Below the pieces are notes generated by a model. That model did not search any database. It had not been told where the DNA came from and worked only from the letters and a program-made list of their open reading frames with translations. The translations under genes were made by a program, and so were the position numbers. From an uncultured Pseudomonadota bacterium (GTDB lineage: Bacteria > Oederibacteriota > Muellerivitia > Muellerivitales > Muellerivitaceae), in contig CAWJKT010000015.1 of assembly GCA_963843375.1 (NCBI GenBank), forward strand, positions 68,305 through 132,304: a stretch of DNA of 64,000 nt, written 5' to 3'. Below are positions 2,543-19,261 of the stretch, piece by piece (within the stretch, counting starts at the first letter, position 1; the number at the start of each line of letters is the position of its first letter).

Positions 2543-4846
2543 ATGGACCTTCAGCAGCTCCTTTATTCCATGGTTGAAAAAAAGGCCTCCGATGTGCATA
2601 TGAAGGCCGGTGCTCCTCCTCTTTTTCGTATTGATGGTGACTTGGCCCCCCAAAGCGAGAATCCCTTGACCCCCCAGGAACTAGCTGAAGTGGCTTCCTA
2701 TCTCATGGATGAAAAACAACAAAGAACCTTTTTCGAAGAACATAAAGAAGTGGATTTGGCCTATGCCGTGGAAGGTTTGGCTCGATTCAGGACCAATGCC
2801 ATGTGGCAAAGGGGATTGCCTGAGATAATTATGCGCGTTATTCCACAGCGCATTCCGAAAATTGAAGATATTAATATGCCGACAGCGATTCTGAAACAAA
2901 TTGCCATGGAGCAACGGGGCCTAATTCTGGTGACCGGAATCACGGGATCGGGCAAATCCACTACTTTAGCATCCCTTATCAATGAAATGAACGTCAACCG
3001 GGCGGCTCATATCGTCACGGTTGAAGATCCCATCGAGTTCGTCCATCCTGACAAAAAATCAAGCGTCACCCAGCGGGAAGTTGGTCTTGATACCGAGAGC
3101 TTCAAAACGGCCCTTAAATATGTTTTGCGGCAAGACCCAGATATCATTCTGATTGGGGAAATGCGCGATATTGAAACGGTTCAGGCCGCCATATCAGCCG
3201 CCGAAACGGGCCACTTGGTTTTATCGACCCTGCATACGATGGATACGATTCAAACGATCGAGCGTATTTTAGATTTTTTCCCTCCGGAACAACAAAATCA
3301 AATTCGGGTCCAGCTTGCTGGAACCCTCCGGGCTGTTATTTCCCAACGATTAGTCAACAAGGCCGATGGTGTTGGGGTGGTGCCGGCTTGCGAAATCATG
3401 ATTGTGACCCAGACCATAAAATCCTTGATCGCCGAGGGCAAAATTTCATCCATCCGGCAATTTATCGCGGAAGGCCATAGTCAATATGGCATGCAAACTT
3501 TCGATCAATCCTTGATTCAATTAGTTCGCGGGGGGTTCATCACGAAAGAAAACGCCATGGAGCAGGCGTCTTCTCCCAGTGAAATAGATTTGGGATTAAA
3601 AGGCATCTCTTCTTCGAAAGCCTCGGCTCAGTCTCTCATTTCTCAAATGGAGAATGCCCAACAAAAAGACCGCGTCAATGGCTGGCTTAAAAAGGGGCAG
3701 GAATACTATGAAAAACGTCGTTACGATGAAGCAAGGGGTGAACTCAAACGAGTCCTTCAGGAAATTCCGGAGCATAAGGAAGCCAATGCCCTGATGGCTC
3801 GGTTGCGGGAGATGGATAATAAGAGCGAAAAGAAAAAGGACGCGTCCACCAACATCAAAACGGCTTTACAGCTTTACCGGGAGGGGAAGCATCAGGCGGC
3901 GATTTTGGAGTTTCAAAAAGCGCTGGAACTCGACCCGGAAAACAAACAAGCTCAGGGTTATATTAAGGCCATCCAGGAAGAACTGGATAACCGATCCAAG
4001 GCCCGTGAATTCTATCAGGCGGCTTTAAACGCCCAAAATCAAAATGATTTGGCGGGCGCTTTGTCCTATGTGGATCAAGCCCTGGTTCTTGATCCGGAAA
4101 ACGAACAAGTCCAAGTTTTACAGCGGGACCTAAAAATATCCGTTCAAAAAGAACAGGCTCGATCCAAGGCTGATTCATTCAATCAAACAGCGATCGATTT
4201 ATACAAGTCGGGGGATTTGTTGAGCGCGTTGGTCGCTTGGAATAAAGCTTATGAGCTCAATTCCGAATTGGAAGATGTCGCCCGCTATCTTCAACAGGGA
4301 ATCACCAAGCTTTTGTCATTTGGGGTGGATGGGTTGGATGCTAATCCAGAGAAACAGCTTATTTTAAACCTCTTCGAACAGGGAGTCCGCAGTTATGTCC
4401 GTGGCGATTTTCAAACAGCTATGGACTTTTTCAAAAAAGCCATTTCCAAGGCCGATGGAAATAATTATTTAAACGCCTATCTTCAAAAGTCCGGCCAAAT
4501 GTTGGAACAACAGATCGGCGAGTTCCTTCAAGACGGGATTCGTGCCCAACAATCCGGAGATTTGACTACCGCCCAAAAGGAATTCACGAAAGTCATTCGG
4601 CTTTCCCCCGGACACCCTGAAGCCATTAAACAATTAGGGGCATTGAAGGTGACTATCCAGCAGAACATGGAAAAACTTTACGCCGATGGCAAACAATATT
4701 TTGATGCCAATGACATGGACCGGGCCATTCGGATTTGGACCCAGATTTTAGACCTGGAGCCTTCAAATGAACGGGCTCAGAAGCGCATTGAAGAGGCGAA
4801 GATCAAAAAAAATACCTTAAGCGGAATATTTTCAAAAATCAGTTGA
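2543..4846 (+). CDS. pilT: PilT-family type IV pilus retraction ATPase fused to a ~400-aa C-terminal TPR domain
   Basis: N-terminal ~350 aa carry Walker A GITGSGKSTT, Walker B DPDIILIGEMRD, His box TGHLVLSTLHT and a PilT-like TIKSLIAEGK. The remaining ~400 aa are TPR-like repeats (e.g. EFQKALELDPENKQAQ, ALVLDPENEQVQ, ILDLEPSNERAQ). Single uninterrupted ORF. Confidence 0.85.
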   Translation: MDLQQLLYSMVEKKASDVHMKAGAPPLFRIDGDLAPQSENPLTPQELAEVASYLMDEKQQRTFFEEHKEVDLAYAVEGLARFRTNAMWQRGLPEIIMRVIPQRIPKIEDINMPTAILKQIAMEQRGLILVTGITGSGKSTTLASLINEMNVNRAAHIVTVEDPIEFVHPDKKSSVTQREVGLDTESFKTALKYVLRQDPDIILIGEMRDIETVQAAISAAETGHLVLSTLHTMDTIQTIERILDFFPPEQQNQIRVQLAGTLRAVISQRLVNKADGVGVVPACEIMIVTQTIKSLIAEGKISSIRQFIAEGHSQYGMQTFDQSLIQLVRGGFITKENAMEQASSPSEIDLGLKGISSSKASAQSLISQMENAQQKDRVNGWLKKGQEYYEKRRYDEARGELKRVLQEIPEHKEANALMARLREMDNKSEKKKDASTNIKTALQLYREGKHQAAILEFQKALELDPENKQAQGYIKAIQEELDNRSKAREFYQAALNAQNQNDLAGALSYVDQALVLDPENEQVQVLQRDLKISVQKEQARSKADSFNQTAIDLYKSGDLLSALVAWNKAYELNSELEDVARYLQQGITKLLSFGVDGLDANPEKQLILNLFEQGVRSYVRGDFQTAMDFFKKAISKADGNNYLNAYLQKSGQMLEQQIGEFLQDGIRAQQSGDLTTAQKEFTKVIRLSPGHPEAIKQLGALKVTIQQNMEKLYADGKQYFDANDMDRAIRIWTQILDLEPSNERAQKRIEEAKIKKNTLSGIFSKIS

Positions 4847-4892
4847 TCTTACCTTGGCTGTTTTTGACTTTTAAAATTAAAAAGGGGTGGAA

Positions 4893-5300
4893 ATGAAATT
4901 AATGATAGTGGGTGCTGGAGTTTTAATTCTGATTTTTATCGTTGTGCTGAACACGTCAATGGTCGCGGACCAAGCGTTATCTTGGGTTGCGGCCAATCCA
5001 AAGGATCCTGGAGCCCCTGATGTTCTTTATCGCACGGCGCGGTGGTGCGATATGCTTGGTAGCGACGACAAGGCAGCATCCATATATTTACAATTGTACC
5101 AACAATATCCCGAGCGGGGGGACTTGTGTGCGCCCGCCCTTTATCATTTGGCGTACAATCTGGCGAATGGAACATATATTGTTGGAATCAAAAAACAAGC
5201 CCTCCCTTATTTAGAAACGATCATGAACCAGTATTCGAGTCAAGACGAATGGTCGACTAAGGCAAAACAACTTTATGATGAGGTGAATTATGCCCATTAA
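4893..5300 (+). CDS. Small N-terminally membrane-anchored protein with TPR/YbgF-like helical repeat (hypothetical)
   Basis: ATG 4893 is preceded by AAAGGGG. One N-terminal hydrophobic helix (MKLMIVGAGVLILIFIVVL). The 3' end overlaps the next gene. Confidence 0.45.
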   Translation: MKLMIVGAGVLILIFIVVLNTSMVADQALSWVAANPKDPGAPDVLYRTARWCDMLGSDDKAASIYLQLYQQYPERGDLCAPALYHLAYNLANGTYIVGIKKQALPYLETIMNQYSSQDEWSTKAKQLYDEVNYAH

Positions 5301-6339
5301 GCTTGGCCGGACTGCGGAATGTTTGATTTTAATGTCGGCTATTTTTGCATTAGGAATTGGGTGCCGTTTGTGGGCGGCAACGGTAGAGGTGGAAAATGAG
5401 GATGATGATATTTCCGTGATTCCCACGCCTGCGCCAAAGGCAATGAATCCCCAAGTGACTCCATCGAACGATAAAGGGGTTGATGCGGATATTGAATTAC
5501 AGGGCGAAGAAAAAGAAGTTTTGCCATCGCCAACACCCGTAAAAAAACCAGAGGTGGATACACCAACTCCGAGCGTTGTTGCAAATGAAAGCCAAGTGAA
5601 AAAAAATGAACAGTCGAATTCTATCGAATCGACCTTACCTCGGGTTCGGATCAATGATAATGTTGGTTTTTATTATTTTGTTTCCGCCGGTTTCATGATT
5701 TCAGATAACGCCCAAATGCACTCCATAGGTAAAGTGATCGGGAACGCCGATACCAGCCTTAATTTCAGCATGCCCAAGAGAACTTATATTGAGTTGGCAT
5801 CAGATCATTATGAAGTTAGGCCTGATGACTTATTAGTTGTTTTTCATTCGGTGCCGGCGTTTCATGATTCGCATTCCACATTTCCTGCATACCAAATCGA
5901 AAATCTAGCCATTGTCAAAGTCATCGAAATTCAGAAAAGACGTGTGCTGGTTGAAGTAAAGGAATCTTTCCGGACTTTTCAGGACGGGGACTTAGTGGAG
6001 ACTTATGAAAATGAGATTAAAAGATGGAAACAGGCTCAAATTAAAAAAGTCCTTCCTTCGCACCCCGTTAAATGTTTTGTAATGGGGGGGGAGTTAAGCC
6101 GCCAAAATTACGAACAAACAGATTTTATTTTTCTTTCCGCTGGCTCAAAAGCTGGTGTTGTGGAAGGCCAAAAATTTGAACTACGGGAAATTGACAACAC
6201 TGGTGCTATGGAAGAGCCTCTTCATGCGCTGCGAGGCGTCGCCCAAGTTATTTCTGCAGGACTAAGGTGCTCCACGGCACAAATCATTAGCAATAGTGAA
6301 TCCATTAAAAAAGGTTTTGAAGCCGTTTACCAACCTTAG
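5290..6339 (+). CDS. Hypothetical exported/membrane protein with an acidic, Pro-rich linker
   Basis: 349-aa ORF with an N-terminal hydrophobic segment and an E/D/P/T-rich low-complexity region, followed by a globular C-terminal half. I recognise no family. Confidence 0.4.
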   Translation: MPIKLGRTAECLILMSAIFALGIGCRLWAATVEVENEDDDISVIPTPAPKAMNPQVTPSNDKGVDADIELQGEEKEVLPSPTPVKKPEVDTPTPSVVANESQVKKNEQSNSIESTLPRVRINDNVGFYYFVSAGFMISDNAQMHSIGKVIGNADTSLNFSMPKRTYIELASDHYEVRPDDLLVVFHSVPAFHDSHSTFPAYQIENLAIVKVIEIQKRRVLVEVKESFRTFQDGDLVETYENEIKRWKQAQIKKVLPSHPVKCFVMGGELSRQNYEQTDFIFLSAGSKAGVVEGQKFELREIDNTGAMEEPLHALRGVAQVISAGLRCSTAQIISNSESIKKGFEAVYQP

Positions 6340-6369: not shown

Positions 6370-7227
6370 ATGACTGTGATGATAGAGGAAGATCAGAGTT
6401 TTAAAAAAATATTGGCTTTTCTTTTGCGCTCAAAAGGTTTCGACGGTAATCACTATAAAACTAATTACATCAAACGTCGAATCGCGGTTCGAATGAGGGT
6501 GGTCGGAGCTTCAACCTATACCGACTATTTAAAAATCCTCCAACATAACCTTGAAGAACCAGCCAGACTTCTGGACCGCCTGACAATCCACGTAACAGAA
6601 TTTTTTCGTGATCCGAGTGTTTATAAAGCGGTCCAAGAAAAAGTACTTCCCGGTTTTTTGGGAAAAGCAGGAAAAAAAATGAAAGTATGGTGCGCTGGCT
6701 GCAGTACCGGTGAGGAGCCCTATTCACTTGCGGGGCTGTTGAACGAATGGGTTTCTTCGAATCCGGAGTACTCTTTTCAAATATTTGCTACGGACATTGA
6801 CCTAAAAAGCATCAGCTTCGCTGAAAAAGGGGAGTATTCACGTGAGTCCTTGGTAAAGGTGCCCAAAGGGGGGCTGACCCGTTGGTTTCGTTCCGATGGA
6901 ACAAAGGTCTCAGTTTCATTTGAATTGAAGAATCATGTTCGATTCAGGGTACATGATTTGCTTGGGAAATGGATGGCAAGTTTGTCCGATTTCGACCTCA
7001 TCTTTTGCCGGAATCTTTTAATCTACCTTACTGGAAAACAACAACAAAAAATTTATGAACAGTTTTCAAACGCCCTAAATCCCCAAGGGTATCTTGTGCT
7101 AGGGCTTACGGAAACCCTTCTGGGGCCCGCTCGGAAATATTTCCATTGCGTGGATGTTAAACATCGTATTTATCAAACCCTGGATTCAAGCGGTGAATTG
7201 GATTTGGAAAAGGATGCGAATGGATAA
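6370..7227 (+). CDS. cheR: Chemotaxis protein methyltransferase CheR
   Basis: N-terminal CheR helical domain plus SAM-binding VWCAGCSTGEEPYSLA and ..DLIFCRNLLIYL. Confidence 0.88.
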   Translation: MTVMIEEDQSFKKILAFLLRSKGFDGNHYKTNYIKRRIAVRMRVVGASTYTDYLKILQHNLEEPARLLDRLTIHVTEFFRDPSVYKAVQEKVLPGFLGKAGKKMKVWCAGCSTGEEPYSLAGLLNEWVSSNPEYSFQIFATDIDLKSISFAEKGEYSRESLVKVPKGGLTRWFRSDGTKVSVSFELKNHVRFRVHDLLGKWMASLSDFDLIFCRNLLIYLTGKQQQKIYEQFSNALNPQGYLVLGLTETLLGPARKYFHCVDVKHRIYQTLDSSGELDLEKDANG

Positions 7228-8392
7228 GGCACAAGAACACATCAATTTGGGGACGGCTTTTTCCCTTTCGCGTCGATTCGATGACGCCATCATTGAGTTC
7301 AAAAGAGCGTTGGAACTGAGTCCTTCTGACGCTGAGATACTTTTTCAATTGGGGGGACTCAGCACGAATGTTGGAAATTATGGGGAGGCGGAAAATTATT
7401 ACCGCCGCTCGCTTGAAATAAATCAAATGAATCTAAACGCACATTGCAAGCTGGGACTCCTTTTGGAAGTTCAGGGGAAATATCAGGAAGCTATTTTGGC
7501 GTTTCAGAAATCGGTTGAATTAAATCCTCTTGATGTCGGCCTTTACAATAACCTCGGAAATGTCTATTCCAAAATGGGGAAATACCAGGAGGCGATTGGA
7601 CAATACCAGAAATATATTGTTATCAATAAAAGTAACGCTGAGATTTACTTCAAATTGGGATATGCCTATGAACAAGCCGGTCAGTTGGAGGAGGCGATTT
7701 CTTCTTACGAACGGGCTTTGATTACGAATCCGCGGCACGCCGCGGTTTACGCTATTTTGGGAAACGTTTATTTAAAAACCGGGAAATACAATGAGGCGAT
7801 CGTTCAATACCATCAGGCCGTGAAATTTAACCCTAACGAACCGGAAGTTCATCTTAAACTCGGCCAAGCCTATATGTCACTTGGTCAATACGAAAAGGCG
7901 TTGGAGATTTTGAATCAGGCAAAAATAAAAAATCCCAACAACGCTGAAGTCTATTTGAAATTAGGAATGATTTACGCAAGTCGGGGTCAACATGATGAGG
8001 CCATTCAAATGTATAGAAAAGTTATGGAAATCAACCCTAATGATGCAAGCGTTCACAATGTTTTGGGGTATATTTATGACAAGCAGGGCGACCTTCAGCG
8101 GGCTCGGGATGAGTATAAAGCCGCCAAGTTAATTAATCCAAACGATGTTCAGATTTTGGACAATTTAGGAAATTTGAGTTACAAACAGGGGAATTTTGAC
8201 GAAGCGGTTGTCGAGTTTGAAAAACTGATAACTTTGAATCCTTCTCACCTGGACGCTCAGGCCAAACTGGGAAACATTTACATGAAAAAGGGCGAAAAAG
8301 AAAAAGCCATAGCTCATTGGGAGAAAGCATTGATACTCGATCCTTCGAATGATATTTTAAAAAATAATTTGAAAATTGTGCGAGGGAACTAA
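7220..8392 (+). CDS. TPR-repeat protein (overlaps the cheR stop; possibly the C-terminal half of a FrzF-like CheR-TPR)
   Basis: About 11 tandem 34-aa TPR units (consensus ..G.Y.EAI..Y.KAL.INPN.A....LG..Y). ATG 7220 has AGGA 5 nt upstream. The track ORF starts at 7154. Confidence 0.75.
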   Translation: MDKAQEHINLGTAFSLSRRFDDAIIEFKRALELSPSDAEILFQLGGLSTNVGNYGEAENYYRRSLEINQMNLNAHCKLGLLLEVQGKYQEAILAFQKSVELNPLDVGLYNNLGNVYSKMGKYQEAIGQYQKYIVINKSNAEIYFKLGYAYEQAGQLEEAISSYERALITNPRHAAVYAILGNVYLKTGKYNEAIVQYHQAVKFNPNEPEVHLKLGQAYMSLGQYEKALEILNQAKIKNPNNAEVYLKLGMIYASRGQHDEAIQMYRKVMEINPNDASVHNVLGYIYDKQGDLQRARDEYKAAKLINPNDVQILDNLGNLSYKQGNFDEAVVEFEKLITLNPSHLDAQAKLGNIYMKKGEKEKAIAHWEKALILDPSNDILKNNLKIVRGN

Positions 8393-8395
8393 TTT

Positions 8396-9034
8396 ATGAT
8401 GAAACCGCAAGAAAAATCATTGGGTGAGCTTCTTCGCCAAGCGGGAAAAATCACTTTTCGTCAAATTCAAGTGGCGTTAGGCGAACAAAAAAAAACCCAT
8501 GAACCGATTGGGAAAATTCTGATAAAGCTGGGTTTTGTCGAGGAACAAGACATATTGCAAGTCATGCAAGGGATGATGGTTTTGACCTTTCGTGTGGAAA
8601 AAGAATGGTATGGAATTGAAACATTTCGGGTTCGTGAAGTTTTAAAATACTCACCATTTCAATTGTTGGAAAATCCGAATGGGTCCTGGGTGGGAACACT
8701 TTCTTTGCGAGGGAAAACTATTTCTGTTTTATCTTTTCGAACTTTTCTGGAAATGGGACAAGTTCAAAGTCCTGAGGGAACTTGGTTTATTGTTTTGGAA
8801 AAGAAAGGGAATCCATTTGTATTGTGGGTTGATCAGGTGAAAGAAGTCACGAGGTTTAAAATAGAACAAATTGAACCCTTGCCGCCTTATTTATTGGGTA
8901 AAAAAAACGACTTATATTATTGTTTGGGTAAAATAAAAGACGATCTTTATTCAATCTTAAATCCAGACAAATTAATCGACGATAACGGCGTTTTACTGCC
9001 ATCGTCAGGGGTTGGTTATGCCTACCCGACCTGA
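8396..9034 (+). CDS. Hybrid protein: T2SSE_N/MshEN-like N-terminal domain fused to a CheW domain
   Basis: Residues ~8-57 (SLGELLRQAGKITFRQIQVALGEQ...PIGKILIKLGFVEEQDILQVMQ) match the tandem GspE/MshE N-domain motif. Residues ~60-200 are CheW-like (..YGIETFRVREVL...LSLRGKTISVLSFR...LWVDQVKEV). Confidence 0.7.
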   Translation: MMKPQEKSLGELLRQAGKITFRQIQVALGEQKKTHEPIGKILIKLGFVEEQDILQVMQGMMVLTFRVEKEWYGIETFRVREVLKYSPFQLLENPNGSWVGTLSLRGKTISVLSFRTFLEMGQVQSPEGTWFIVLEKKGNPFVLWVDQVKEVTRFKIEQIEPLPPYLLGKKNDLYYCLGKIKDDLYSILNPDKLIDDNGVLLPSSGVGYAYPT

Positions 9035-11231
9035 AACTAAAACTATCCGTGAACTTGCCCATGGAAGCGATCAAGGGGACGCTTCTACTCACAATAATTT
9101 GGGCGTATTTTATTATTCCAAAGGGATGTATGCCGAGGCCATAAAAGAATTTAAAACGGCTTTGGAAGTGGATCCGGAAAACAATCAAGCGCAAGAAAAC
9201 TTGAAGGCCGTGAACCGTCATACAGGGCTTTATGATAGGTCGATCGAGGCTTACAAAAAATCAGTCCAAATGTTTCCCCAGGATGCCGAGGCTTATTACA
9301 ATCTGGCCAATGCATATCGTTATACCGGTCAATATGAAAAGGCCATCGAGGAGTATCGAAAGTCGCTCCAATTAAATCCGGACCATCCTTTTGCCAGGAA
9401 TTATTTGGGGATTGCTAACAAATGCTTAGGCAGGTTTGATGAAGCACTGGCCGAATTTCGAAAGGCCATTGAAAAAAATCCTTTTTTTGCCGACCTTCAT
9501 AATAATTTGGGCGAGGTTTATTATAAAAAAACTATGATCAACGAGGCATTGATCGAGTTTAAAAAAGCTATTTCCCTAAATCCTGATTATGCCATTGCCC
9601 ATTACAATTTAAGTTTTGTTTATGGCGACAAAAATATGCTTCAAGAAGCGGAACGAGAATTCAAAAAAGCCGTAGATTTGAATCCGAATTTTGGTCAAGG
9701 ATCACAGGCACTTTTGGCTATTGAACGCCCTAAAACCTTGGAAGAAAGGGTAGCGGAGAAAGTCGCAGCAAATCCCGCCGAACACAATGGAGTCGATACT
9801 TATTTGAGCTTAGCTTCCGCATATAAAGGAAAGGGGTTATTGGACGAGGCTATTCGGGAATATAAACGGGCCATCGAGGCCGTTCCTGGACAAGAAAAAC
9901 TTTATCGCGCCTTAGGAGAAATATATCTTGTTAAAGGGATGTTGGAGGACTCCTTAGCGGCTTCCCAAAAAGCCATCGAATTGGCTCCCAAGAATGTTGA
10001 AAACTATATTCAAACAGGGATTGCTTTAAGAGAACTTAATCGAACGGACCAAGCCGCAAAACAGTTTCTAACGGCCATACAAATATCACCTGGATCTAGT
10101 ATGGGCCATTTTGAACTGGGAGTGACCTACTTTAAAATGGGTGAAAGTGAAAAGGCGACCCAACAGGTGCGGGAAGCATTGGAAATCGATCCTCAAAATG
10201 CCGAAGCCCATTATTATCTTGGAGTTTATTACTACAAAGTGAATTTATATGACGAAGCCATTCGTGAAATTTCACAAGCCATTGATTTAAATGTTTCTAT
10301 CGCATCCAGCGCTGAAGCGTTGACCTATCTGGGATTGGCTTTATCCGATAAGGGACGGTTTGAGGAAGCGATCGCGGAATATAAAAAAGCGATGGAGTTT
10401 GACCCCAAAAATCCGATAATTCACAATAGCTTAGGAGTTGCTTACAAGAATGCAGGTATGATTCAAGAATCCATTGCACATTACCAAAAGGCCATTGAAC
10501 TTAACCCCCAATACGCAAAAGCCTACAATAATTTAGGCGTTGTTTACTTTAAAATGAGCCAATACGAGAGGGCCATTGAAGCATTCAAAAAAGCGGTTGA
10601 AATTGAACCGCTTTATAAAACAGCGCAAAATAATTTGGCCGTTGCCCTGAAAAAGAAGAATGTCCTGTCGGAAGCATCGGAAGTTCTTATTAAACAAATT
10701 ATGGCGGATCCCGAAAACGCTTCTCTCCATTTCAATTTAGGAATTCTTTATAAGAATACTGGGCAGTTTTTGGAGGCCGTTAGGGAATTTCAAGAAACGG
10801 TTCGATTAGTTCCGAAGAATCGTGAGGCTCTTACAAATTTAGGTGAAGTTTATTTGAACTTGGAAATGTTGGATGATGCCATAAAGGTTTTGGCACGCGC
10901 AGTGTCCTGTGATGTTCAATTTCCGGAAGCTCATTTACAACTGGGCAAGGTCTACATTCGGCGCAAATGGTGGGACGAGGCGCTAGTTGAACTTAGAAAA
11001 GCAGAGGAGCTTAAACCGGAATTGAATGAGGTTCATTTTTATTTGGGGCAGGTGTATAGGTTTAAAAGTTGGTGGGATGAAGCGGTTGTCGAGTTTCAGA
11101 AATATATGGACTCCCATAGCCCTGAAGAAGATAAGGTGATTCAATCGATTGACATGCTTCAACAGATACAAGTTTGGAAAAGAGAACTACAGATTTCTCC
11201 CAGCGCCGATAAATCGAAATTGATTAAATAG
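9018..11231 (+). CDS. Large TPR-repeat protein (~737 aa, about 20 repeats)
   Basis: Continuous TPR units throughout (NLGVFYYSKGMYAEAIKEFKTALEVDPEN... onward). ATG 9018 overlaps the upstream gene by 17 nt. Confidence 0.8.
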   Translation: MPTRPETKTIRELAHGSDQGDASTHNNLGVFYYSKGMYAEAIKEFKTALEVDPENNQAQENLKAVNRHTGLYDRSIEAYKKSVQMFPQDAEAYYNLANAYRYTGQYEKAIEEYRKSLQLNPDHPFARNYLGIANKCLGRFDEALAEFRKAIEKNPFFADLHNNLGEVYYKKTMINEALIEFKKAISLNPDYAIAHYNLSFVYGDKNMLQEAEREFKKAVDLNPNFGQGSQALLAIERPKTLEERVAEKVAANPAEHNGVDTYLSLASAYKGKGLLDEAIREYKRAIEAVPGQEKLYRALGEIYLVKGMLEDSLAASQKAIELAPKNVENYIQTGIALRELNRTDQAAKQFLTAIQISPGSSMGHFELGVTYFKMGESEKATQQVREALEIDPQNAEAHYYLGVYYYKVNLYDEAIREISQAIDLNVSIASSAEALTYLGLALSDKGRFEEAIAEYKKAMEFDPKNPIIHNSLGVAYKNAGMIQESIAHYQKAIELNPQYAKAYNNLGVVYFKMSQYERAIEAFKKAVEIEPLYKTAQNNLAVALKKKNVLSEASEVLIKQIMADPENASLHFNLGILYKNTGQFLEAVREFQETVRLVPKNREALTNLGEVYLNLEMLDDAIKVLARAVSCDVQFPEAHLQLGKVYIRRKWWDEALVELRKAEELKPELNEVHFYLGQVYRFKSWWDEAVVEFQKYMDSHSPEEDKVIQSIDMLQQIQVWKRELQISPSADKSKLIK

Positions 11232-11242: not shown

Positions 11243-11581
11243 ATGAAATTGCTTGTTTGTATTATTTCGCCCAAAAAAATTGAACAAGTTAAAAAGACTT
11301 TATGGGAAGCTGGAGTTCGAGGAGTAACCTTGTCGGAGGGGTATGGTTTTGGATATCAAAGGGTTCAGGTAGAAGCGATAAAAGGGGCGGATTATAAAGT
11401 CCAATACCAGCCGAGAATACGTGTTGAAATTGCATTGCCTAATAATGAAGTTGAAAAAGTGCTTGAACTGCTTTTGGAAACAGTCCGGACGGGTCGAATT
11501 GGAGATGGAAAATTCTTTATCTTACCTCTTGAGGATGCGATTCGTGTTCGCACGGGTGAACGGGGCGAAGGTACTCTTTAA
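11243..11581 (+). CDS. P-II family signal-transduction protein (GlnB/GlnK-like)
   Basis: 112 aa, collinear with canonical GlnB: MKL..IISP.K...VK..L.EAGV.G.T..E..GFG.Q...........Y.V...P..R.EI....EVE.V...L....RTG.IGDGK.F..P...A.RVRTGE. Confidence 0.8.
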   Translation: MKLLVCIISPKKIEQVKKTLWEAGVRGVTLSEGYGFGYQRVQVEAIKGADYKVQYQPRIRVEIALPNNEVEKVLELLLETVRTGRIGDGKFFILPLEDAIRVRTGERGEGTL

Positions 11582-11699: not shown

Positions 11700-12062
11700 G
11701 TGGCACATCGAGTTATGCTCGTTGATGATGCGTCTTTCATGAGAATGATGCTGAAAAACATTCTTGTGGGATCCGGATATGAAATTATTGGTGAGGCTGA
11801 AAACGGGGCCAAAGCGGTTGAACAATATAAGAGCCTGAAACCGGATTTAACAATCATGGATATTATCATGCCTGAAATGGGTGGTATTGATGCGGTACGG
11901 GAAATTGTAAAAATAAATCCTTCCGCAAAAATTCTAATGTGTAGCTCCATGGGTCAACAATCATTAGTGGTGGAAGCAATTCAAGCTGGGGCCAAAGATT
12001 TTATTGTCAAACCTTTTCAACCATCCAACGTATTGGAGGCTGTTAAAAAGGCATTGGGTTAA
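11700..12062 (+). CDS. cheY: Chemotaxis response regulator CheY
   Basis: 120-aa receiver: VMLVDDASFMR, phospho-acceptor context DLTIMDIIMPEMGG, KPF. GTG start preceded by GGGAGGG. Confidence 0.9.
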   Translation: MAHRVMLVDDASFMRMMLKNILVGSGYEIIGEAENGAKAVEQYKSLKPDLTIMDIIMPEMGGIDAVREIVKINPSAKILMCSSMGQQSLVVEAIQAGAKDFIVKPFQPSNVLEAVKKALG

Positions 12063-12110: not shown

Positions 12111-12750
12111 ATGGGAATAGAATCTGAAATTTTCAGTGATTTTCAATTGGATGCTTTGCGGGAAATCGGAAATGTTGGAGCCGGAAACGCCGCCACTGCT
12201 CTTTCTCAAATGGTCGGGCGCCGAGTCGATATGTCGGTAACAAAGGTTTTGGTTTTGCCAACCGATGGCATTGCGGGTTTTTTAGGCGGGTTGGATCAAA
12301 ATGTGGCTGCGGTTCATATGCCCATCTATGGAGAAGTTTGCGGTATTTCCCTTGTGTTCTTTCCACTGGATAGAATCAATGAGCTTTGTGGGATGTTGAT
12401 CGGAAAAGTAGAAAAAGATCCATTCCATTTGTCCGAATTGGGCCAATCCGCCATTAAGGAACTTGGAAGCATACTAACGGGTTCCTATTTAAGCGCTTTG
12501 TTCAGGTTTGTCCATATTCAAATGATCCATGGTGTTCCTGGGCTTGGCGTTAGATATGGCGCAAGCCGTGCTTGATACGGTTTTGGTGGAATTAGAGCAA
12601 AAAGAAGAAATCGCCATCGTGATTGAAACAGAATTTCTTGAAAATGAAAAACAATTAACAGGTAGTTTTTTCCTTTTGCCGGAAGCCGGGTCTTTGAAAA
12701 AATTGTTTATTGCTTTTTCAAAATCACTTGGAATTCCTGGGAATGCCTGA
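12111..12750 (+). pseudogene. cheC: CheC-like CheY-P phosphatase, split by a single +1 frame disruption near 12540-12547 as given
   Basis: ORFs 12099..12575 and 12529..12750 together are collinear with the intact CheC at 17422..18036 (..HGVPGL | ALDMAQAVLDT..). Both active-site motifs are partly degenerate (first ends in T rather than P; second has S for N). Confidence 0.75.
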
Positions 12751-13192
12751 AGAAAACTGGATTGTTGGCATCGCGGAATATAAGGTAACCCACAGCCCAA
12801 ACAGGCTAGTGGCTTATGGTCTGGGTTCTTGCGTGGGGGCTATACTTTGCGATCTCCAGGCTAAAGTTGGCGGGTTGGCTCATATCATGCTTCCCTCAAG
12901 CCGTCTTTATGTTCAGACGGAATTTCCTGGTAAGTTTGCCGATACTGCGATTGACATGTTAGTAAATGAGATGGAAAAATTGGGGAGCTGTCCAAAAAAT
13001 ATTTTCTCCAAAATTGTTGGTGGCGCAAATATGTTTTCTTCGATCTCGCAAAATTCAGTTCCGATTGGGTTGCGTAACGTTTCTGCTGTTCGTGAAAAGT
13101 TGCAGCAGCGAAACATCCCTATTTTGGCCGAACAAGTGGGGGGGACCCAGGGAAGAACAGTCTTATTTGATATTGAGACCGGAAAGAGTTGA
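12743..13192 (+). CDS. cheD: Chemoreceptor glutamine deamidase CheD
   Basis: ..GLGSCVGAILCD...GGLAHIMLPSS.. are the CheD catalytic Cys/His contexts. ATG 12743 overlaps the cheC stop (ATGCCTGA). Confidence 0.85.
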   Translation: MPEENWIVGIAEYKVTHSPNRLVAYGLGSCVGAILCDLQAKVGGLAHIMLPSSRLYVQTEFPGKFADTAIDMLVNEMEKLGSCPKNIFSKIVGGANMFSSISQNSVPIGLRNVSAVREKLQQRNIPILAEQVGGTQGRTVLFDIETGKS

Positions 13193-13242
13193 AATACGGA
13201 AATTAAATCAATTTTCGGAATGGATTTGATCGGAAGTGTGAA

Positions 13243-13708
13243 TTGAGTGTTTCGTTATCGGAAGTATCTAATAGTTTCCAGGTTAGCGATGAATTCCAAT
13301 GGGTTGTTTTCTGCATAGCTGGATCCGAGATGAGTGTTGGGATCAGTCATGTTCGGGAAATAATCCGTGTGGGCGAAATAACTCGAATGCCAAGGGCTCC
13401 CAAATTTTTGGAAGGAATCATCAATCTGCGAGGACGTATTATCCCCGTTTTAGACTTGAAAAGACGTTTTAATATGCCACTTGTGGATTCGACAAGTGAA
13501 TCACGGATATTAGTAGTTGAAATTGAAGACCAAATGTTAGGTCTTTTAGTGGATAAGATTTTAGAAGTCATAAAAGTTTCTGTCGCAAATGTCGCTCCGC
13601 CAAAAGAGACGACATTGAATATCGGCCCCGAGTATCATAAATGGAGTGCTGACTTTGGATCGTCGAAAAATTCTTATTTTTGAACTTGCTGAAGCTTTTT
13701 GTATTTGA
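13243..13708 (+). pseudogene. cheW: CheW coupling protein; 3' end displaced by a +1 disruption at a C-run near 13626-13629
   Basis: CheW domain (..FCIAGSEMSVGISHVREI...INLRGRIIPVLDLKRRF..LGLLVDKILEV). The conserved C-terminus (..SIINGVLTLDRRKILIFELAEAF) is only readable in the +1 frame, which ends at 13708. Confidence 0.75.
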
Positions 13709-13764
13709 GGATATGAAATTATTTTCGGATTCTGAGGCGGGTTCTTTTGGGGAGGGAAAAACCA

Positions 13765-14130
13765 TTGGCCATTAAAGTATTATTCGTGGATGATTCTTCT
13801 TTCATGAGAACTGTTCTGAAAGGGATTATTCTAAAAGACCCTTTTGAACTTGCAGGAGAGGCTGGAACCGGTAAAGATGCCGTGGATCTTTATAAGAAGT
13901 TAAAACCTGATCTCGTCACCATGGATATCGTGATGCCGGAAATGAACGGTATAGACGCCGTAAAAGAGATTCGACTCTTTGACTCGCAAGCGAAAATCAT
14001 TATGGTAAGTGCGATGGGGCAACAGAATATGGTGATTGATTCTATACAGGCAGGTGCCAGGGATTTCATAATTAAACCCTTTCAGCCACCGCGCGTCCAC
14101 GAAGCTTTGAAGCGGGTAATTGGTATTTAA
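13765..14130 (+). CDS. cheY: Chemotaxis response regulator CheY (second copy)
   Basis: Receiver domain: KVLFVDDSSFMR, DLVTMDIVMPEMNG, IIKPF. TTG 13765 sits 9 nt after GGAGGG (track start 13747). Confidence 0.85.
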   Translation: MAIKVLFVDDSSFMRTVLKGIILKDPFELAGEAGTGKDAVDLYKKLKPDLVTMDIVMPEMNGIDAVKEIRLFDSQAKIIMVSAMGQQNMVIDSIQAGARDFIIKPFQPPRVHEALKRVIGI

Positions 14131-14160: not shown

Positions 14161-15273
14161 ATGATGCCTGAAAAATCCTCCACCATTAAAGTTTTGGTCG
14201 TCGATGACTCCTACTTCATGCGAAAAATGCTTCAGGATATCTTGGCGGATTCAAGCGATGTTATCCGTGTAGTGGACACCGCTAAAAACGGTTTGGAGGC
14301 AATTGAAAAGACTAAAAAATTAAAACCTGATGTTATTACCATGGATGTCGAAATGCCTCGGATGGATGGTTTGGTGGCTCTTGAAAAGATTATGCGGGAA
14401 CGACCGACCCCAGTGATCATGCTCTCGAGCCACACAGGAAAAGGTAGCGAAGCCACTATTCGGGCGCTGGAATTAGGAGCCGTTGATTTTATCGAAAAGC
14501 CGGTCGGCAGGATCTTGGAAAATGTTCGGGACATTCAAGGTGAATTGATTGAGAAAATTAAGATGGCGTCCCTAAGCAGGCCAAGATACTTTCCTCCATC
14601 GAGTCCAGAAGTTGAAACTAAAAGTTCAATAAAAAACCGTCCGCAGGTGAGCGGGGCTTCATCAAACGGTATCAAAAGTGAAAATCGGGCGACTTTTATT
14701 GTTGCAATCGCCTCGTCGACGGGCGGTCCCCGCGCACTGAACGAGCTTTTTTCTCGAATAACTGGAAATTCAACTTCGGCTTTCGTAATTGTGCAACATA
14801 TATCCGTTGGATTTACCAAGGCTTTAGCCCGAAGGTTAGGGGAAGTGAGCCCATTAGTATTTTCAGAAGCAATAGAAAATGGTTACTTGAAAGCAGGATG
14901 TGTTTATCTCGCGCCTGGGGGATGTCATCTCGTTTTAGAGGGGTTGCCCGGCAATTTTCGATTTGCCTTTGACGACTCTCCTCCCCGTTTAGGCGTCAAG
15001 CCCTCGGCGGATATTACAATGGCCTCCGTGGCAAAGGTTGCTCCAAAAAAATGTTTGGGAGTTGTTTTAACAGGAATGGGCCGGGATGGAACTATTGGTT
15101 TAAAAAGTATACGAGCTGTTGGTGGAAAAACGTTTGCTCAAGATGCAGAGAGTTGTGTTGTCTATGGCATGCCTAAATCTGCGATGGATGCCAAAGTGAT
15201 AGATCGACAATTGCCAATAGCCGCAATTGCGGCTGAAATCAATGCCTTTTTAAGCCACCAAATTGAACTCTAG
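14161..15273 (+). CDS. cheB: Protein-glutamate methylesterase/glutaminase CheB (receiver + methylesterase)
   Basis: N-terminal receiver (VLVVDDSYFMR, DVITMDVEMPRMDG). C-terminal catalytic contexts IASSTGGPRAL, VQHISVGF, TGMGRDG. Confidence 0.9.
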   Translation: MMPEKSSTIKVLVVDDSYFMRKMLQDILADSSDVIRVVDTAKNGLEAIEKTKKLKPDVITMDVEMPRMDGLVALEKIMRERPTPVIMLSSHTGKGSEATIRALELGAVDFIEKPVGRILENVRDIQGELIEKIKMASLSRPRYFPPSSPEVETKSSIKNRPQVSGASSNGIKSENRATFIVAIASSTGGPRALNELFSRITGNSTSAFVIVQHISVGFTKALARRLGEVSPLVFSEAIENGYLKAGCVYLAPGGCHLVLEGLPGNFRFAFDDSPPRLGVKPSADITMASVAKVAPKKCLGVVLTGMGRDGTIGLKSIRAVGGKTFAQDAESCVVYGMPKSAMDAKVIDRQLPIAAIAAEINAFLSHQIEL

Positions 15274-15345: not shown

Positions 15346-17441
15346 GTGAACATCGGAGATTATAAAGATGCTTTTTTGACGGAAGCCCGCGAGTACTTAT
15401 CGACACTTAATAATTCCTTGGTTTTGTTGGAAAAAAATCAAACTCAAACCGACGCCATTAATGATATTTTCCGAGCGGCTCATACACTTAAGGGGATGGC
15501 CGCGACGATGGGTTACGATCCAATGGTGCGGTTGACACACCAAATGGAAACACTTTTGGAACCGATTCGTTCCGGGACTCAAAATCCTTTCTACCCGAAT
15601 GGTAGATGTCCTGTTTGTTTGTTTGGATCAGTTGGAAAAATGGTTGGAAATTTTAATGACGCAAGATTTTATTGAGGAAGAAAGCCTTCAAACGGTTCTT
15701 CAATTGCTCTATTCGGTTTGGGATGACCAATCTAATTCAGATGTTTCCGGGATCGATTCTTTTACCCCCGAAATCGAAATTCCACTACTTTTCTCGGAAT
15801 CGGAAAATGAAATATTGTCCCAAGCTAAGATAAATGGCTTTTCTATCTTTAAAATTATCAATCCAATTAGTCCCGGATTGTAATTTCAAAGAAGTTCGAG
15901 CTTTCATGATCCTAAAAAACATAAATGTGTTTGGCGAAATTGTTCAAAAGCCGTCCTATTCCCGAAGAAATTGAAAAGGGACATTTTATGGACCGGTTTA
16001 TATTAGTTGTTGTGACTGATTGGAAACCTGAAAAAATCAAAGAATCGCTTTTGAATGTTGGAGAGGTTATCGATGTTAGAGTCGAGGACTTTGTGCCCAG
16101 AATCTTCTTCGGCTCCATTTACTGGGAATGAGGAAGTTTTGGGGCTGAATTCGAAAACGATTTCTCTTTCTCCGCCGAGTCAGTCGGTGGCCCCGGAAGA
16201 GCGGAAGATTATTTTACCTACCATCCGTGTCCATACCTCGAAATTAGATAAATTAATGGCATTGGTTCAGGAATTGGTAATTTCGAAAATTCGCTTTGAA
16301 CAAGTTGCTACCTCCAAAGCATTGAAAGAGTTGTCGGACCCGCTTTCACAACTAAATCACATTACCGACGAACTTCAGGACGAAATTATGAAGGTTCGTC
16401 TGATGCCCGTGAAACAAATTTTCGAAAGATTTCCGAGGATGATTCGGGACTTGGCCAAAAATTTGAATAAACAAGTTGATTTGGAAATGGATGGAGCGGA
16501 AGTTGAATTAGATAGGACAGTACTAGAGGAAATGAGCGAACCACTTGTTCATCTTTTAAGAAACGCGGTTGACCATGGGATAGAAGAACCCGAAATAAGG
16601 ACCAAAGAAGGGAAGGAACCCTATGGGACCATCCGGCTTCAGGCTAAACGCGAGAGATCTTATGTTGTTATTTCCATTTCGGATGACGGTCGGGGGGTTG
16701 ATCCGGATATTATTCGACAAAAATCTATTGAAAAAGGACTTGTGACCCCTGACGATGCGGCAAAACTAACAGATGAAGAGGTGATTCGTTTGATTGCCTT
16801 ACCTGGCTTTTCAACCGTTGAAAATGCTACTGAAATATCTGGCCGAGGTGTTGGGGTTGATGTGGCCAAAACAAAAGTTGAAATACTTAGGCGGAACTTT
16901 TCGGATTCTAAGCAAAAAAGGACATGGAACCACATTTATTTTGAAATTTCCGCTTACTTTGGCAATTATTAAGGCACTTTTAGTCAAGTGTAACCAGGAA
17001 ATATTTGCCATGCCTGTTGTCAATATCATTGAAACGCTCGATGTTTTTCCAGCGGAGAAAAAATTGATTCAACAACAAGAAACTATTATTTTGAGGGGAG
17101 ATGTTATACCCCTTTATCCACTTCAGGAACTACTGGATTTGCCCATTCCCGATGTTAGTTACATAACTGGACTGGAGACTGTTCTGGTGGTTGAGGTGGG
17201 GGAATCAAGAGTGGGATTGCGGGTGGATGAGGTAATTGCCCAACAAGAGATAGCCATTAAATCCCTAGATCGAATTTTAAAAGGCATACGTGGTTTTTCG
17301 GGCGCAACTATTCTGGGGAATGGTAAGATAGCGCTCATATTGGATGTGAATAGTTTGATCGAAGATTTAAAGGACAAGCGTTTTCAGGTTGAACATCCTC
17401 TTTTTAGTAAGGAAGACGTTAATGCTTCTCAATCTCGATGA
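15346..17441 (+). pseudogene. cheA: Chemotaxis histidine kinase CheA, spread over five reading frames (at least 5 single-nt +1 disruptions)
   Basis: HPt (AAHTLKGMAATMG) lies in ORF 15346..15675. The P2-like VRAFMILKNINVFGEIVQ and PIPEEIEKGHF lie in two further frames. P3/P4 (TIRVHTSKLDKL, HLLRNAVDHGIE, DDGRGV, GRGVGVDV) are in 16055..16972. The end of the ATPase domain and P5/CheW-like (GGTFRILSKKGHGTTF..PLTLAIIKALLV) are in 16794..17441. Confidence 0.88.
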
Positions 17442-18036
17442 ATTAAATCCAGCTCAACTGGATGCGATAAAAGAAGTTGGAAATATTGGAGCGGGGCACG
17501 GTGCGACAGCCCTTTCTCAGCTTTTAGGGAAAAGAATCTTAATCACTGTTCCTAAAGCAAACATCATTCCCTTATCAGAGATTCCGAGCTTAGTGGGGGA
17601 TCCAAATACCCTGGTAGCGGGGCTTACTTTGTCTATTTTGGGGGATGCAACAGGAAAAATTATTCTTTTGTTTCCAAGGGATTCAGCGCTTCATCTTGCG
17701 GACATGCTTTTAAAACAACCGATCGGTTCCAGCAAAATTCTAACCGAAATGGGACATTCGGCCATTAAGGAAGCTGGAAATATTCTAACCGGAGCTTACT
17801 TAAGTGCTTTAAATGAATTTTTGGGAATGTTACTCCTTATTTCAGTTCCAACTTTAGTTTTTGACATGGCGGGTGCCCTTTTGGCTACTGTCACTCAAGG
17901 GTTGGAAGATGCGACAAAAGTTATTTCGATTGAAACACGATTCATTGATGACAACAAAGAAATAGGCGGTTATTTTATTTTGGTTCCAGATGCGGTTTCG
18001 TTACGTGCTATTTTTCAAGCAATCAAGGTTAAGTGA
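17422..18036 (+). CDS. cheC: CheC-type CheY-P phosphatase (both D/S-x3-E-x2-N-x22-P motifs intact)
   Basis: DAIKEVGN + 22 aa + P, and SAIKEAGN + 22 aa + P. ATG 17422 overlaps the cheA end (track start 17389). Confidence 0.75.
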   Translation: MLLNLDELNPAQLDAIKEVGNIGAGHGATALSQLLGKRILITVPKANIIPLSEIPSLVGDPNTLVAGLTLSILGDATGKIILLFPRDSALHLADMLLKQPIGSSKILTEMGHSAIKEAGNILTGAYLSALNEFLGMLLLISVPTLVFDMAGALLATVTQGLEDATKVISIETRFIDDNKEIGGYFILVPDAVSLRAIFQAIKVK

Positions 18037-18184
18037 GATTTATTGTTAGTTTTTTGCGGTTTTGAATAAGCCTTTATTTGCGCCTTTCTGATATTTAATA
18101 AGACCGTGTTAATATAATGCCATTAAATTCTATGTTTGCTATCAGCTTGAATAAGAGGTTTTGTGAGTTCCGACACCACCCTAA

Positions 18185-19261
18185 TTGAAAAACTCATTTC
18201 ACGTTGTGTCAAACCCGCCAATTCATCAATCAAATCTAGTTGCATGCTGTAAAGATATTCTGGAAAACTTCAAATTTGACTGTGTTTTTTTGGCTCGCGC
18301 TTCCAATGCCGAAGAACCCCTTTCGATAGTGGCATTAGATGGTAAGGAAGAAGTAATGGATACCTGCCTTTATCGGTTGGGGGTGGAGGAGCGAAATGCA
18401 CTTTCCAAACTTCCGCTAAAAACCTATTTGGATATAACTGGAAAACCTGTTTTCAATAAATCCGGGTCTCTTCGCATTCAAAAACCCAACAGCGGCGTGT
18501 TTATGGTATTGAACCGGGCAAAAAAAAATTATTTGTTATTTGGATGTGCTCATCAGAATTCGCAAGCTTATGATCATAAAACGCTGGAGGAGCTTTCCGC
18601 ACTTTGGAAGCTGTGGCAGGAACCGTTGGAAAGAGCCGTTCTGCAAGTGTCCGAAACGGGGAAAAAGGACGGGGGAATTGATAATTCAAAGAATGAAACT
18701 GTTGTTGAAGAAAAACCGGGTTTCACTTTAATTAATTCAGTTACAACGCCCCAATCCCCTGAACTTAATCGAGATGGACGTCGCCCGATAGTCCTGGTGG
18801 ATGAAGTGACTCGTCTTTTTAATAAAGAATATTTTGCCGAATGTCTTTCAATTGAGGTTGAAAGGGCGAAAAGATATTCCCGCTTGATGAGCCTTATGTT
18901 TCTAAGCGTTTCACCTGTTGATGGCGTTTCAAGCAAACTGGATAAAAATCTAGTGGCGACACAAGTCGCTGAAATTCTTTCCAAGAGTCTTCGCCGGGTA
19001 GATGTAATCTGTCGGTTAGATCAAAATAAATACGGAATAATTCTTCCGGACACGGCGAATAACACGTATGGAATTATTGCGAAAAGAATTTTTAAATTCT
19101 TCAAGCTAATTATGGGAGACGCGTCTCCTGTGTTTCTTAATATCAGTGCTTCTACTTATCCAAAGCATGCCGCGGACCATCATAGTCTTCTTGAGAATGC
19201 TGAAAAACTTTTGGCTCAAGCGCAAGAGGTTGGGCCGAACAAAGCTGTTCTACCGGAATGA
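18185..19261 (+). CDS. Two-domain signalling protein: N-terminal GAF-like region plus a degenerate GGDEF domain
   Basis: The C-terminal ~165 aa align to the GGDEF fold (DEVTRLFNKEYF...RYSRLMSLMFLSV...R.VDVICRLDQNKYGIILPDT). The GG(D/E)EF signature is replaced by DQNKY. Confidence 0.55.
   Translation: MKNSFHVVSNPPIHQSNLVACCKDILENFKFDCVFLARASNAEEPLSIVALDGKEEVMDTCLYRLGVEERNALSKLPLKTYLDITGKPVFNKSGSLRIQKPNSGVFMVLNRAKKNYLLFGCAHQNSQAYDHKTLEELSALWKLWQEPLERAVLQVSETGKKDGGIDNSKNETVVEEKPGFTLINSVTTPQSPELNRDGRRPIVLVDEVTRLFNKEYFAECLSIEVERAKRYSRLMSLMFLSVSPVDGVSSKLDKNLVATQVAEILSKSLRRVDVICRLDQNKYGIILPDTANNTYGIIAKRIFKFFKLIMGDASPVFLNISASTYPKHAADHHSLLENAEKLLAQAQEVGPNKAVLPE

Follow-up and report, generated by a model that had tools for sequence, protein, structure and literature searches.

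A bacterial gene cluster that encodes CheR, CheB and CheD, the enzymes that modify chemoreceptors, raises a question when no receptor gene accompanies it: what do these enzymes act on, and what does the pathway control? Such a cluster lies in a 64,000-nt stretch of DNA from an uncultured bacterium (assembly GCA_963843375.1, contig CAWJKT010000015.1, positions 68,305 to 132,304; hereafter the window, with positions counted from its first letter). At 2543-19261, the genes of a chemosensory (Che) core are joined to those of a PilT-family ATPase fused to tetratricopeptide repeats (PilT-TPR), further TPR proteins, an extended CheW, a P-II protein and a degenerate GGDEF protein. On balance, we favour the reading that this is a locus typical of candidate division FCPU426, combining an F1-like core, an accessory module and a GGDEF protein with a cyclic di-GMP (c-di-GMP) I-site, that its receptors are encoded elsewhere, and that it probably links c-di-GMP and metabolic state to pilus retraction.

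All 19 genes of 2543-19261 lie on the + strand in the layout of open reading frames (ORFs), with overlapping or very short junctions, and just two gaps exceed 100 nt (11582-11699 and 18037-18184), as the original prediction had described. The features of the locus and its upstream flank are as follows.

1..703, + strand, large TPR protein, 3' end (Pfam TPR families; about 763-782 aa in relatives)
679..2448, + strand, TMEM260-like O-mannosyltransferase (PF11028, 1.1e-20)
2543..4846, + strand, PilT-TPR: PilT/PilU-family hexameric ATPase (aa 1-350) plus about 420 aa of TPR repeats
4887..5300, + strand, small N-terminally anchored protein (TPR_6 1.7e-5, below cutoff; YfiO-like repeat borderline)
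5290..6339, + strand, TsaP/FlgT-like secreted or lipoprotein-like protein of 349 aa (no Pfam match for the window copy; predicted fold)
6370..7227, + strand, CheR (PF01739 1e-53; CheR_N 2.5e-12)
7220..8392, + strand, TPR390, a 390-aa all-TPR protein (eleven TPR repeats by Pfam)
8396..9034, + strand, MshEN-CheW: MshE-type domain (aa 5-58) and CheW (aa 60-196)
9018..11231, + strand, TPR737, a 737-aa all-TPR protein (Pfam TPR families)
11243..11581, + strand, P-II, GlnB-like (PF00543, 1.8e-22)
11700..12062, + strand, CheY1, single-domain response regulator (PF00072, 1.8e-30)
12111..12750, + strand, CheC phosphatase (PF04509; +1 insertion at 12543)
12743..13229, + strand, CheD deamidase (PF03975 1e-30; 3' end altered by a +1 insertion at 13183)
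13243..13775, + strand, canonical CheW (PF01584 7.4e-31, stopping at profile position 103/138; +1 insertions at 13634 and 13676)
13747..14130, + strand, CheY2 (PF00072, 1.3e-28)
14161..15273, + strand, CheB, REC and methylesterase (PF01339 4.9e-55, and REC)
15346..17441, + strand, CheA, Hpt-P2-dimerisation-HATPase-CheW (Pfam Hpt, H-kinase_dim, HATPase_c and CheW on pieces; at least 4 frame changes)
17389..18036, + strand, second CheC/CheX-like phosphatase (CheC 1.1e-23, CheX 1.5e-10; CheC_Thtogales 4.5e-49)
18185..19261, + strand, degenerate GGDEF protein (PF00990 4.3e-14; conserved N-terminal domain with no assigned family)

The cluster is composed of three parts: the F1-like core (P-II, CheY, CheC, CheD, CheW, CheY, CheB, CheA, CheC/X), the accessory module (PilT-TPR, the small anchored TPR protein, the TsaP/FlgT-like periplasmic protein, CheR, TPR390 and MshEN-CheW, plus TPR737) and the degenerate GGDEF protein with its I-site. 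Most of the inventory in the original prediction is borne out. CheA, the CheW domains (8396-9034, 13243-13775 and CheA-P5), two CheY, two CheC and the enzymes CheR, CheB and CheD each have Pfam matches, PilT-TPR combines T2SSE (1.5e-49) with TPR matches and scores above the TIGR01420 cutoff, and the GGDEF domain carries DQNKY at its active-site positions. Two items stand in part. Of four proteins proposed to bear TPRs, PilT-TPR and the products of 7220-8392 and 9018-11231 do so, while the protein at 4887-5300 is borderline (TPR_6 at 25.6 bits against a cutoff of 26.3). The proposed T2SSE_N-CheW hybrid is correct by NCBIfam NF053729 and by matches to PDB profiles, although Pfam itself gives no T2SSE_N match even at E<=10.

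We identified relatives by scanning one genome per GTDB species with the extended CheW, which yielded 33 loci labelled mostly as FCPU426, with single Goldbacteria and Methylomirabilis records; over 100 close homologues of the extended CheW were found, all of uncultured origin. Mapping with tblastn showed that, as far as their contigs extend, 21 species-level FCPU426 loci have their genes arranged as in the window, beginning with the TPR and TMEM260-like genes upstream and ending with the GGDEF gene, at 49-84 % identity of the extended CheW. Because this order is identical in 21 loci, the cluster is one conserved unit and not a chance neighbourhood, consistent with a PilT-TPR whose linkage persists down to 41 % identity. 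All 40 loci contain the CheR-TPR-MshEN-CheW core. Median identity to the window is highest for CheY1 (89 %), followed by TPR737 (81 %), PilT-TPR (79 %), CheC/X (79 %) and P-II (78 %), compared to 60 % for CheB and 59 % for CheR. Since their median identities exceed those of CheB and CheR, the accessory proteins are more strongly constrained than these classical enzymes.

The original prediction held that neither cluster nor window encodes a methyl-accepting chemotaxis protein (MCP), and our search agrees. Using Tsr and McpB hairpin sequences as phmmer probes against all six frames of the 64-kb window, we found nothing below E=0.8, while the same hairpin probe matched the MCPs of related loci at E=1e-34 to 1e-38. 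An MCP was likewise found in the cluster of 0/21 clade loci. An MCP hidden within the TPR proteins or in another frame was considered as a candidate and rejected on the same six-frame negative and positive controls.

The sister lineages show where a receptor gene belongs. Two groups of related clusters (L032, L035 and L036; L038 to L041) carry a dedicated MCP of about 430 aa between cheD and cheW, the junction that measures 13 nt in the window. The MCP of L036 matches PF00015 at 2.4e-45 and has two closely spaced transmembrane helices and no periplasmic domain. An MCP in the cheD/cheW slot thus belongs to this cluster type and was lost from that slot in the window's clade. This comparison corrects the proposal that TPR proteins occupy the positions where receptors usually sit, as the sister MCP slot lies between cheD and cheW, and it leaves unsupported the proposal that they replace the receptor layer, as an MCP coexists with TPR737 and TPR390 in L032, L035 and L036. 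The original prediction had also named an MCP within the same conserved cluster as the finding that would overturn it; one is found in the sister lineages and none in the window's clade. Because sister clusters carry an MCP alongside TPR proteins, we drop the claim of TPR receptors: the absence of an MCP here is not evidence for them or for a receptor-free system.

What, then, do the modifying enzymes act on? CheR retains motifs for binding of S-adenosylmethionine and catalysis (FFRD, CAGCSTGEEPYS and FCRNLLIY), CheD retains GLGSCV and HIMLP, and CheB retains SSTGG, QH and GMGRDG. To our knowledge, MCPs are the only known substrates of CheR, CheB and CheD. Because all three enzymes keep their catalytic motifs, a methyl-accepting substrate is expected elsewhere, and the receptors are probably encoded at another place in the genome. 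MCP genes are often unlinked from che operons in bacteria, and CheA-P5 and CheW are themselves receptor-binding modules. We sought relocated MCPs of the window's clade through homologues of the sister-cluster MCP, and the inspected members of about 430 aa were all located inside clusters (four contexts). One candidate for a relocated receptor, a HAMP-MCP on a long contig, was rejected, as it belongs to an unrelated che operon.

The sister clusters differ from the window's in more than the MCP. In L032, L035 and L036, the order is small TPR protein, unknown protein, HD-GYP, CheR, TPR, extended CheW, large TPR, P-II, CheY, CheC, CheD, MCP, CheW, CheY, CheB, CheA and CheC/X, with the HD-GYP protein in the position of PilT-TPR. 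The L038 to L041 lineage, which we reached via homologues of the sister-cluster MCP, has prfA, prmC, PilT-TPR, small protein, unknown protein, CheR, TPR, extended CheW, P-II, CheY, CheC, CheD, MCP, CheW, CheY, CheB, CheA, CheC, an FtsA/PilM-like gene, (dprA) and topA; it has no TPR737, and its PilT-TPR is the one that is 41 % identical. P-II is present in every full cluster variant. The TMEM260-like gene is a clade-specific upstream neighbour outside the deeply conserved system, its place being taken by prfA-prmC in sister lineages. Upstream conservation of the large TPR protein is likewise limited to the window's clade, where a 763-aa ORF of the closest species (L025) aligns to window positions 5-700 (tblastn).

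Parts of the cluster also occur in other settings. In the Goldbacteria- and Methylomirabilis-labelled records (L033:5218-9347 and L034:6461-10582), a five-gene module of small TPR protein, TsaP-like protein, CheR, TPR and MshEN-CheW stands alone, with no other che genes nearby, flanked by nifU/mnmA-type and suf/ABC housekeeping genes; the module is therefore separable from the rest of the cluster. Several lineages carry a 703-727-aa FtsA/PilM-like actin-fold protein directly after the last cheC (L038:15934-18114, L039, L040, L041, L023:20137-20586 and L043:13678-), a slot that is held by the degenerate GGDEF gene in the window's clade. L043 is an unrelated che operon without the accessory module, yet has the FtsA/PilM-like gene in this position.

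We next consider to which class the core belongs. The intact orthologous CheA is best matched among NCBIfam models by CheA_Halo (540 bits, compared to 360 bits for the E. coli model), and T. maritima CheA matches it better (347 bits) than E. coli CheA does (267 bits). Residues 142-429 of the L036 MCP are collinear with residues 14-308 of T. maritima TM1143, while a 14-residue gap is needed against Tsr. CheC, CheD and CheX-type auxiliaries accompany the core, as in F1 systems. Because of the CheA and CheC scores, the TM1143-collinear sister MCP and the presence of CheC and CheD, we regard the core as F1-like (Thermotoga/Bacillus/archaeal type), an assignment made by proxy scores. The core is not of the type IV pilus (Tfp) class, because the CheA orthologues, with one Hpt each and lacking REC, are not ChpA-like; nor is it of the alternative cellular function (ACF) class, because it has no multidomain response regulator, both CheYs being REC-only and the GGDEF protein lacking REC.

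Compared to known systems, the cluster is a mixture. It shares CheA (P1-P5), CheW, CheY, CheB, CheR, CheC, CheD and a CheC/X-like protein with the F1 systems of Thermotoga maritima, Bacillus subtilis and archaea, but it has no MCP or flagellar genes, and we know of no F1 operon with PilT-TPR, a TsaP-like protein, P-II, MshEN-CheW or large TPR proteins. It is similar to Pil-Chp of Pseudomonas aeruginosa, a Tfp-class system whose two CheY-like regulators PilG and PilH act on PilB and PilT, in that a chemosensory pathway is genetically tied to type IV pilus motors. Pil-Chp also includes methylation by PilK and ChpB (PMC12129077). The cluster differs from Pil-Chp by having CheC and CheD, by having no PilJ-type MCP or pilI, by a CheA with one Hpt and no REC and by an ATPase that lies inside the cluster, fused to TPR repeats. 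The ACF pathways Wsp (Pseudomonas) and Frz (Myxococcus) combine CheR with a TPR domain and are connected to GGDEF/c-di-GMP (PMC3447774). The cluster likewise pairs CheR with TPR and touches c-di-GMP, but its CheR and TPR390 are separate, overlapping genes and its response regulators have single domains. Unlike WspR, its GGDEF protein has neither REC domain nor active site, and so cannot be a WspR-type output.

We then examined the accessory proteins individually. PilT-TPR scores 468.9 bits against TIGR01420 (cutoff 319.1), aligns to Thermus PilT 5fl3 over 350 residues (1.6e-111) and contains the Walker A, Walker B and His box motifs GITGSGKST, DIILIGEMRD and TGHLVLSTLHT; by profile and motif it is a genuine PilT/PilU-family ATPase. 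The TPR390 gene overlaps the end of cheR by 8 nt and directly follows CheR in 40/40 related loci; TPR390 is apparently a split counterpart of CheR-TPR fusions. TPR737 is second to CheY1 in conservation within the cluster. In the small protein at 4887..5300, we read an N-terminal hydrophobic helix. Its positional counterpart in L036 matches YfiO at 2.2e-8, and hhalign relates that counterpart to the window protein with just 44 % probability.

The 349-aa protein has a signal-peptide-like N-terminus and an AlphaFold2 (AF2) model with a pLDDT mostly above 90 for aa 120-349. Its top Foldseek match is TsaP, a protein associated with the secretin of type IV pili, in complex with PilQ (6ve2_O, E=1e-4, TMt 0.57, 243 columns) at a sequence identity of 13 %, and the next is FlgT (3w1e, 95 columns). 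Pfam FlgT_C is found in 10/24 of its homologues, and homology of its C-terminal 220 aa extends to every cluster variant (hhalign 99.9-100 %). In its predicted fold, the protein resembles TsaP/FlgT, with two FlgT-C/TsaP-like beta domains. TsaP itself is built of two FlgT-C-like domains, and the 349-aa protein similarly has tandem domains after a signal sequence; it differs from TsaP in having no detected LysM domain, and the fold match is moderate.

Three proteins bear on second messengers or metabolic state. The 60-residue N-terminal extension of MshEN-CheW matches NF053729 ('cyclic di-GMP-binding domain, MshE-related') at 5.7e-15 (54.8 bits, cutoff 38). A profile of the family matches Thermus PilF 6f8l in three stretches (1.5e-15), the PilF c-di-GMP domain 8pdk (6e-6) and V. 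cholerae MshE 5htl (8e-6). The AF2 model of the domain (pLDDT 86-93 in the region) superimposes with a root-mean-square deviation of 1.0 A over 48 columns on 8pdk_A and 1.7 A over 56 columns on 5htl_B, both c-di-GMP-bound structures. MshEN domains are built from a 24-residue motif, RLGxxLLxxGLLxxxxLxxxLxxQ, that occurs twice with a 5-residue spacer in between (PMC5013675). In MshEN-CheW, both motifs and the 5-residue spacer can be recognized and are almost invariant across 40 loci; the distances are retained, as are motif II and the residues equivalent to Gly, Leu and Gln32. NCBIfam, the PDB profiles and the predicted fold all identify the extension as an MshEN-type domain, whose putative binding of c-di-GMP is plausible. 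It shares the four-helix domain of about 53 residues with MshE, the GSPII-B domain of PilF and PilB, but it is fused to CheW and not to an ATPase. The MshEN fusions listed previously include REC, HD-GYP, CheA and CheX, and CheW is not among them (PMC5013675); the architecture forms only about 6 clusters (at 50 % identity) among 1.84 billion representatives.

The P-II protein scores 80 bits against PF00543 (cutoff 25), yet remains below the NCBIfam GlnB and GlnK equivalog cutoffs (99 and 90 bits against 181 and 202). It has Ile at the Tyr51 position of the T-loop, and the B-loop GDGK and RVRTGE are retained. In orthologues of the GGDEF protein, the active-site positions read DQNKY, SPNQY or EKDKY in place of GG(D/E)EF, while RRVD of the RxxD I-site, five residues ahead of the active site, is invariant in the 4/4 sequences that reach it (KSLRRVDV). 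Such a pattern is that of a receptor for c-di-GMP and not of a cyclase.

The original prediction suggested an alternative pathway controlling type IV pili or c-di-GMP. Set apart from the replacement of receptors by TPR proteins, which is not supported, both links remain plausible. The pilus link is plausible from the family membership of PilT-TPR together with the TsaP-like fold of its neighbour, and the c-di-GMP link from the MshEN-like domain of CheW, the GGDEF I-site and the HD-GYP protein that replaces PilT-TPR in a sister lineage. Whether the output is specifically a type IV pilus is, in our estimate, evenly balanced.

Several observations weigh against this overall picture. The placement of the receptors elsewhere is an indirect one, drawn from intact motifs in CheR, CheB and CheD. 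A third FCPU426 lineage (L026, L027, L029, L030 and L037; for example, L027:8000-17682) has a CheR-to-CheB cluster without an MCP or an adjacent CheA, showing that the module can be rearranged. In motif I of MshEN-CheW, the stacking Arg R9 is replaced by S, preceded by Lys/Arg, and R14 and K18 stand at hydrophobic positions, while motif II lacks its final Q; S8, R14, K18 and the last position deviate even from the relaxed motif (PMC5013675). Genes for pilins, pilB, pilC, pilMNOPQ or a secretin were absent from the 64-kb window and the flanks examined, and a pilus output accordingly leans on the assignment of PilT-TPR to the PilT family and on a single fold match of moderate strength. In addition, flagellar rings too contain FlgT-like domains, and the classical roles of F1 systems are flagellar or archaellar.

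As comparisons, we consider three other explanations, of which control of a flagellum or another non-pilus output is the one that these last points invite. The core would then control flagellar rotation as in Thermotoga and Bacillus, the FlgT-like protein would sit in a basal-body ring, and PilT-TPR would be separate or regulatory. The F1-like signature of the core agrees with this, as do the matches of the 349-aa family to FlgT_C and FlgT 3w1e, and the related phylum Goldbacteria is reported to have flagellar genes (PMC7031533). However, no flagellar gene was found in the window or in any related locus examined; PilT-TPR is packed with the module through 40-nt and overlapping junctions, a linkage kept across deep divergence; and the best whole-protein fold match is TsaP, which covers both domains over 243 columns compared to 95 for FlgT. 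We therefore regard a flagellar or other non-pilus output as unlikely. A second explanation, which goes back to the original prediction, removes the receptor: the clade's Che core would work without any MCP, with the TPR proteins, MshEN-CheW and P-II taking over scaffolding and input and sensing cytoplasmic c-di-GMP or metabolites. It is favoured by the absence of an MCP from the cluster of all 21 clade loci and from the 64-kb window, by cluster-type MCPs of about 430 aa that were seen inside clusters only and never relocated in the four contexts inspected, and by the unusual conservation of TPR737 (81 %) together with its absence from the MCP-bearing L038 to L041 variant. Against it, L032, L035 and L036 have TPR737, TPR390 and an MCP together, and CheR, CheB and CheD, whose known substrates are solely MCPs, are retained with their catalytic motifs. 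CheA-P5 and CheW bind receptors, MCP genes are often unlinked, and no frame of the window offers an MCP-like hairpin. A receptor-less array is thus highly improbable. Only slightly better are the prospects of a more elaborate version, in which the clade dispensed with its dedicated transmembrane receptor and the Che core acts as an integrator in the cytoplasm, where a c-di-GMP-binding CheW, P-II and the highly conserved TPR scaffolds gate CheA and directly control the TPR-fused PilT retraction motor; we consider it quite improbable. If it were true, the array would be driven by second messengers and metabolites and not by MCP ligands.

The third explanation is that the locus is decaying, with the che genes of the source strain being pseudogenes (at least 8 frameshifts within 12.5-17 kb) and the system non-functional. 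Four che genes are interrupted: cheA falls into at least 4 ORFs, and +1 insertions are found in cheC, cheD and cheW. The frameshifts are concentrated within 4.5 kb (12.5-17 kb), whereas 2.5-12.5 kb is clean. Relative to the intact 698-aa ORF of the closest species, cheA passes through frames 1, 2, 1, 2 and 3, with changes at about 15580-16900, and CheA is intact at 687-713 aa in relatives. A further comparison is to a short-read contig (L001) that is 99.9 % identical to the window, with 6 mismatches in 6431 aligned positions. It does not have the four single-base insertions found in the window (12543, 13183, 13634 and 13676), and its CheC (212 aa), CheD (161 aa) and CheW (176 aa) are intact; all four genes that it covers are uninterrupted, and 4/4 of the insertions checkable against it are +1 in the window. 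The essential gap gene (52950-54024) is split likewise, with a break at about 53431-53513, and a related long-read contig (L041, 'np' label) is fragmented in a similar manner. Given that the near-identical short-read contig is intact and that gap, an essential gene, is broken too, the interruptions of cheA, cheC, cheD and cheW are errors of the assembly consensus and not gene decay. Pseudogenization specific to the che genes is rejected on these grounds, and a decaying locus is highly improbable.

Returning to our preferred reading, of an F1-like system with receptors elsewhere and a pilus motor as its output, we propose the following mechanism. MCPs encoded elsewhere in the genome would nucleate arrays that contain CheA and both CheW proteins. 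MshEN-CheW could tune the coupling of the kinase via c-di-GMP, and P-II could tune it via the ATP/ADP/2-oxoglutarate state (energy, carbon/nitrogen). Receptor adaptation would be the task of CheB, CheD and CheR, the last acting with TPR390, its split partner. Phosphorylated CheY, reset by the two CheC-type phosphatases, would act on the PilT-TPR motor, which would in turn drive retraction of a type IV pilus at a TsaP-like/secretin complex, with the TPR proteins possibly serving as docking scaffolds.

The surroundings of the cluster are mostly ordinary. The rest of the window contains topA, argB, nrdR, eno, a lipopolysaccharide (LPS)/lipid A block, lptFG, a LytS/LytTR pair, gap-pgk, lnt and three very large proteins. 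Among the other large ORFs of the 64-kb window, Pfam identifies housekeeping, LPS and two-component genes and no flagellar or further pilus genes, in agreement with the original prediction that flagellar genes are absent. A scan for promoters and terminators showed no excess over shuffled sequences (31 vs 37.5; 29 vs 25.6), and hence holds no operon information. An outer-membrane/lipid A block is located at 32527-39374 (skp/ompH, lpxD, lpxC, lpxA, lpxI, lptF/lptG), which shows that the organism is diderm; this fits a secretin-type pilus machine. At 41876-52735, the ORFs of the three very large proteins (944, 756 and 1137 aa) are Pfam-blank save for one sub-threshold fn3 match, the GC content climbs to 0.48-0.51, and the GC skew turns negative despite the genes being on the + strand. 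Either an acquired island or a group of surface proteins could account for this stretch. Adjoining it, at 39734-41766, is a pair formed by a LytS-type histidine kinase (His_kinase and HATPase_c) and a LytTR response regulator. In the third FCPU426 lineage, a conserved 268-aa Pfam-blank protein follows CheB, and prfA and prmC lie upstream in L027.

Altogether, the locus mixes three archetypes, namely an F1 core, a Tfp-like pilus motor and ACF-like TPR and c-di-GMP elements, in a phylum that has no cultured member. In the searchable literature, we found no description of MshEN joined to CheW, of PilT with a C-terminal TPR region or of P-II in a che operon. The series of variants, with or without an MCP, with or without TPR737, with PilT-TPR or HD-GYP, and with a GGDEF or an FtsA-like protein, is a ready comparative experiment. 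Routes of c-di-GMP based on PilZ are known, and a route through MshEN-CheW would differ from them: if MshEN-CheW binds c-di-GMP, it would provide a direct path from the motile-sessile second messenger into the layer that couples the kinase.

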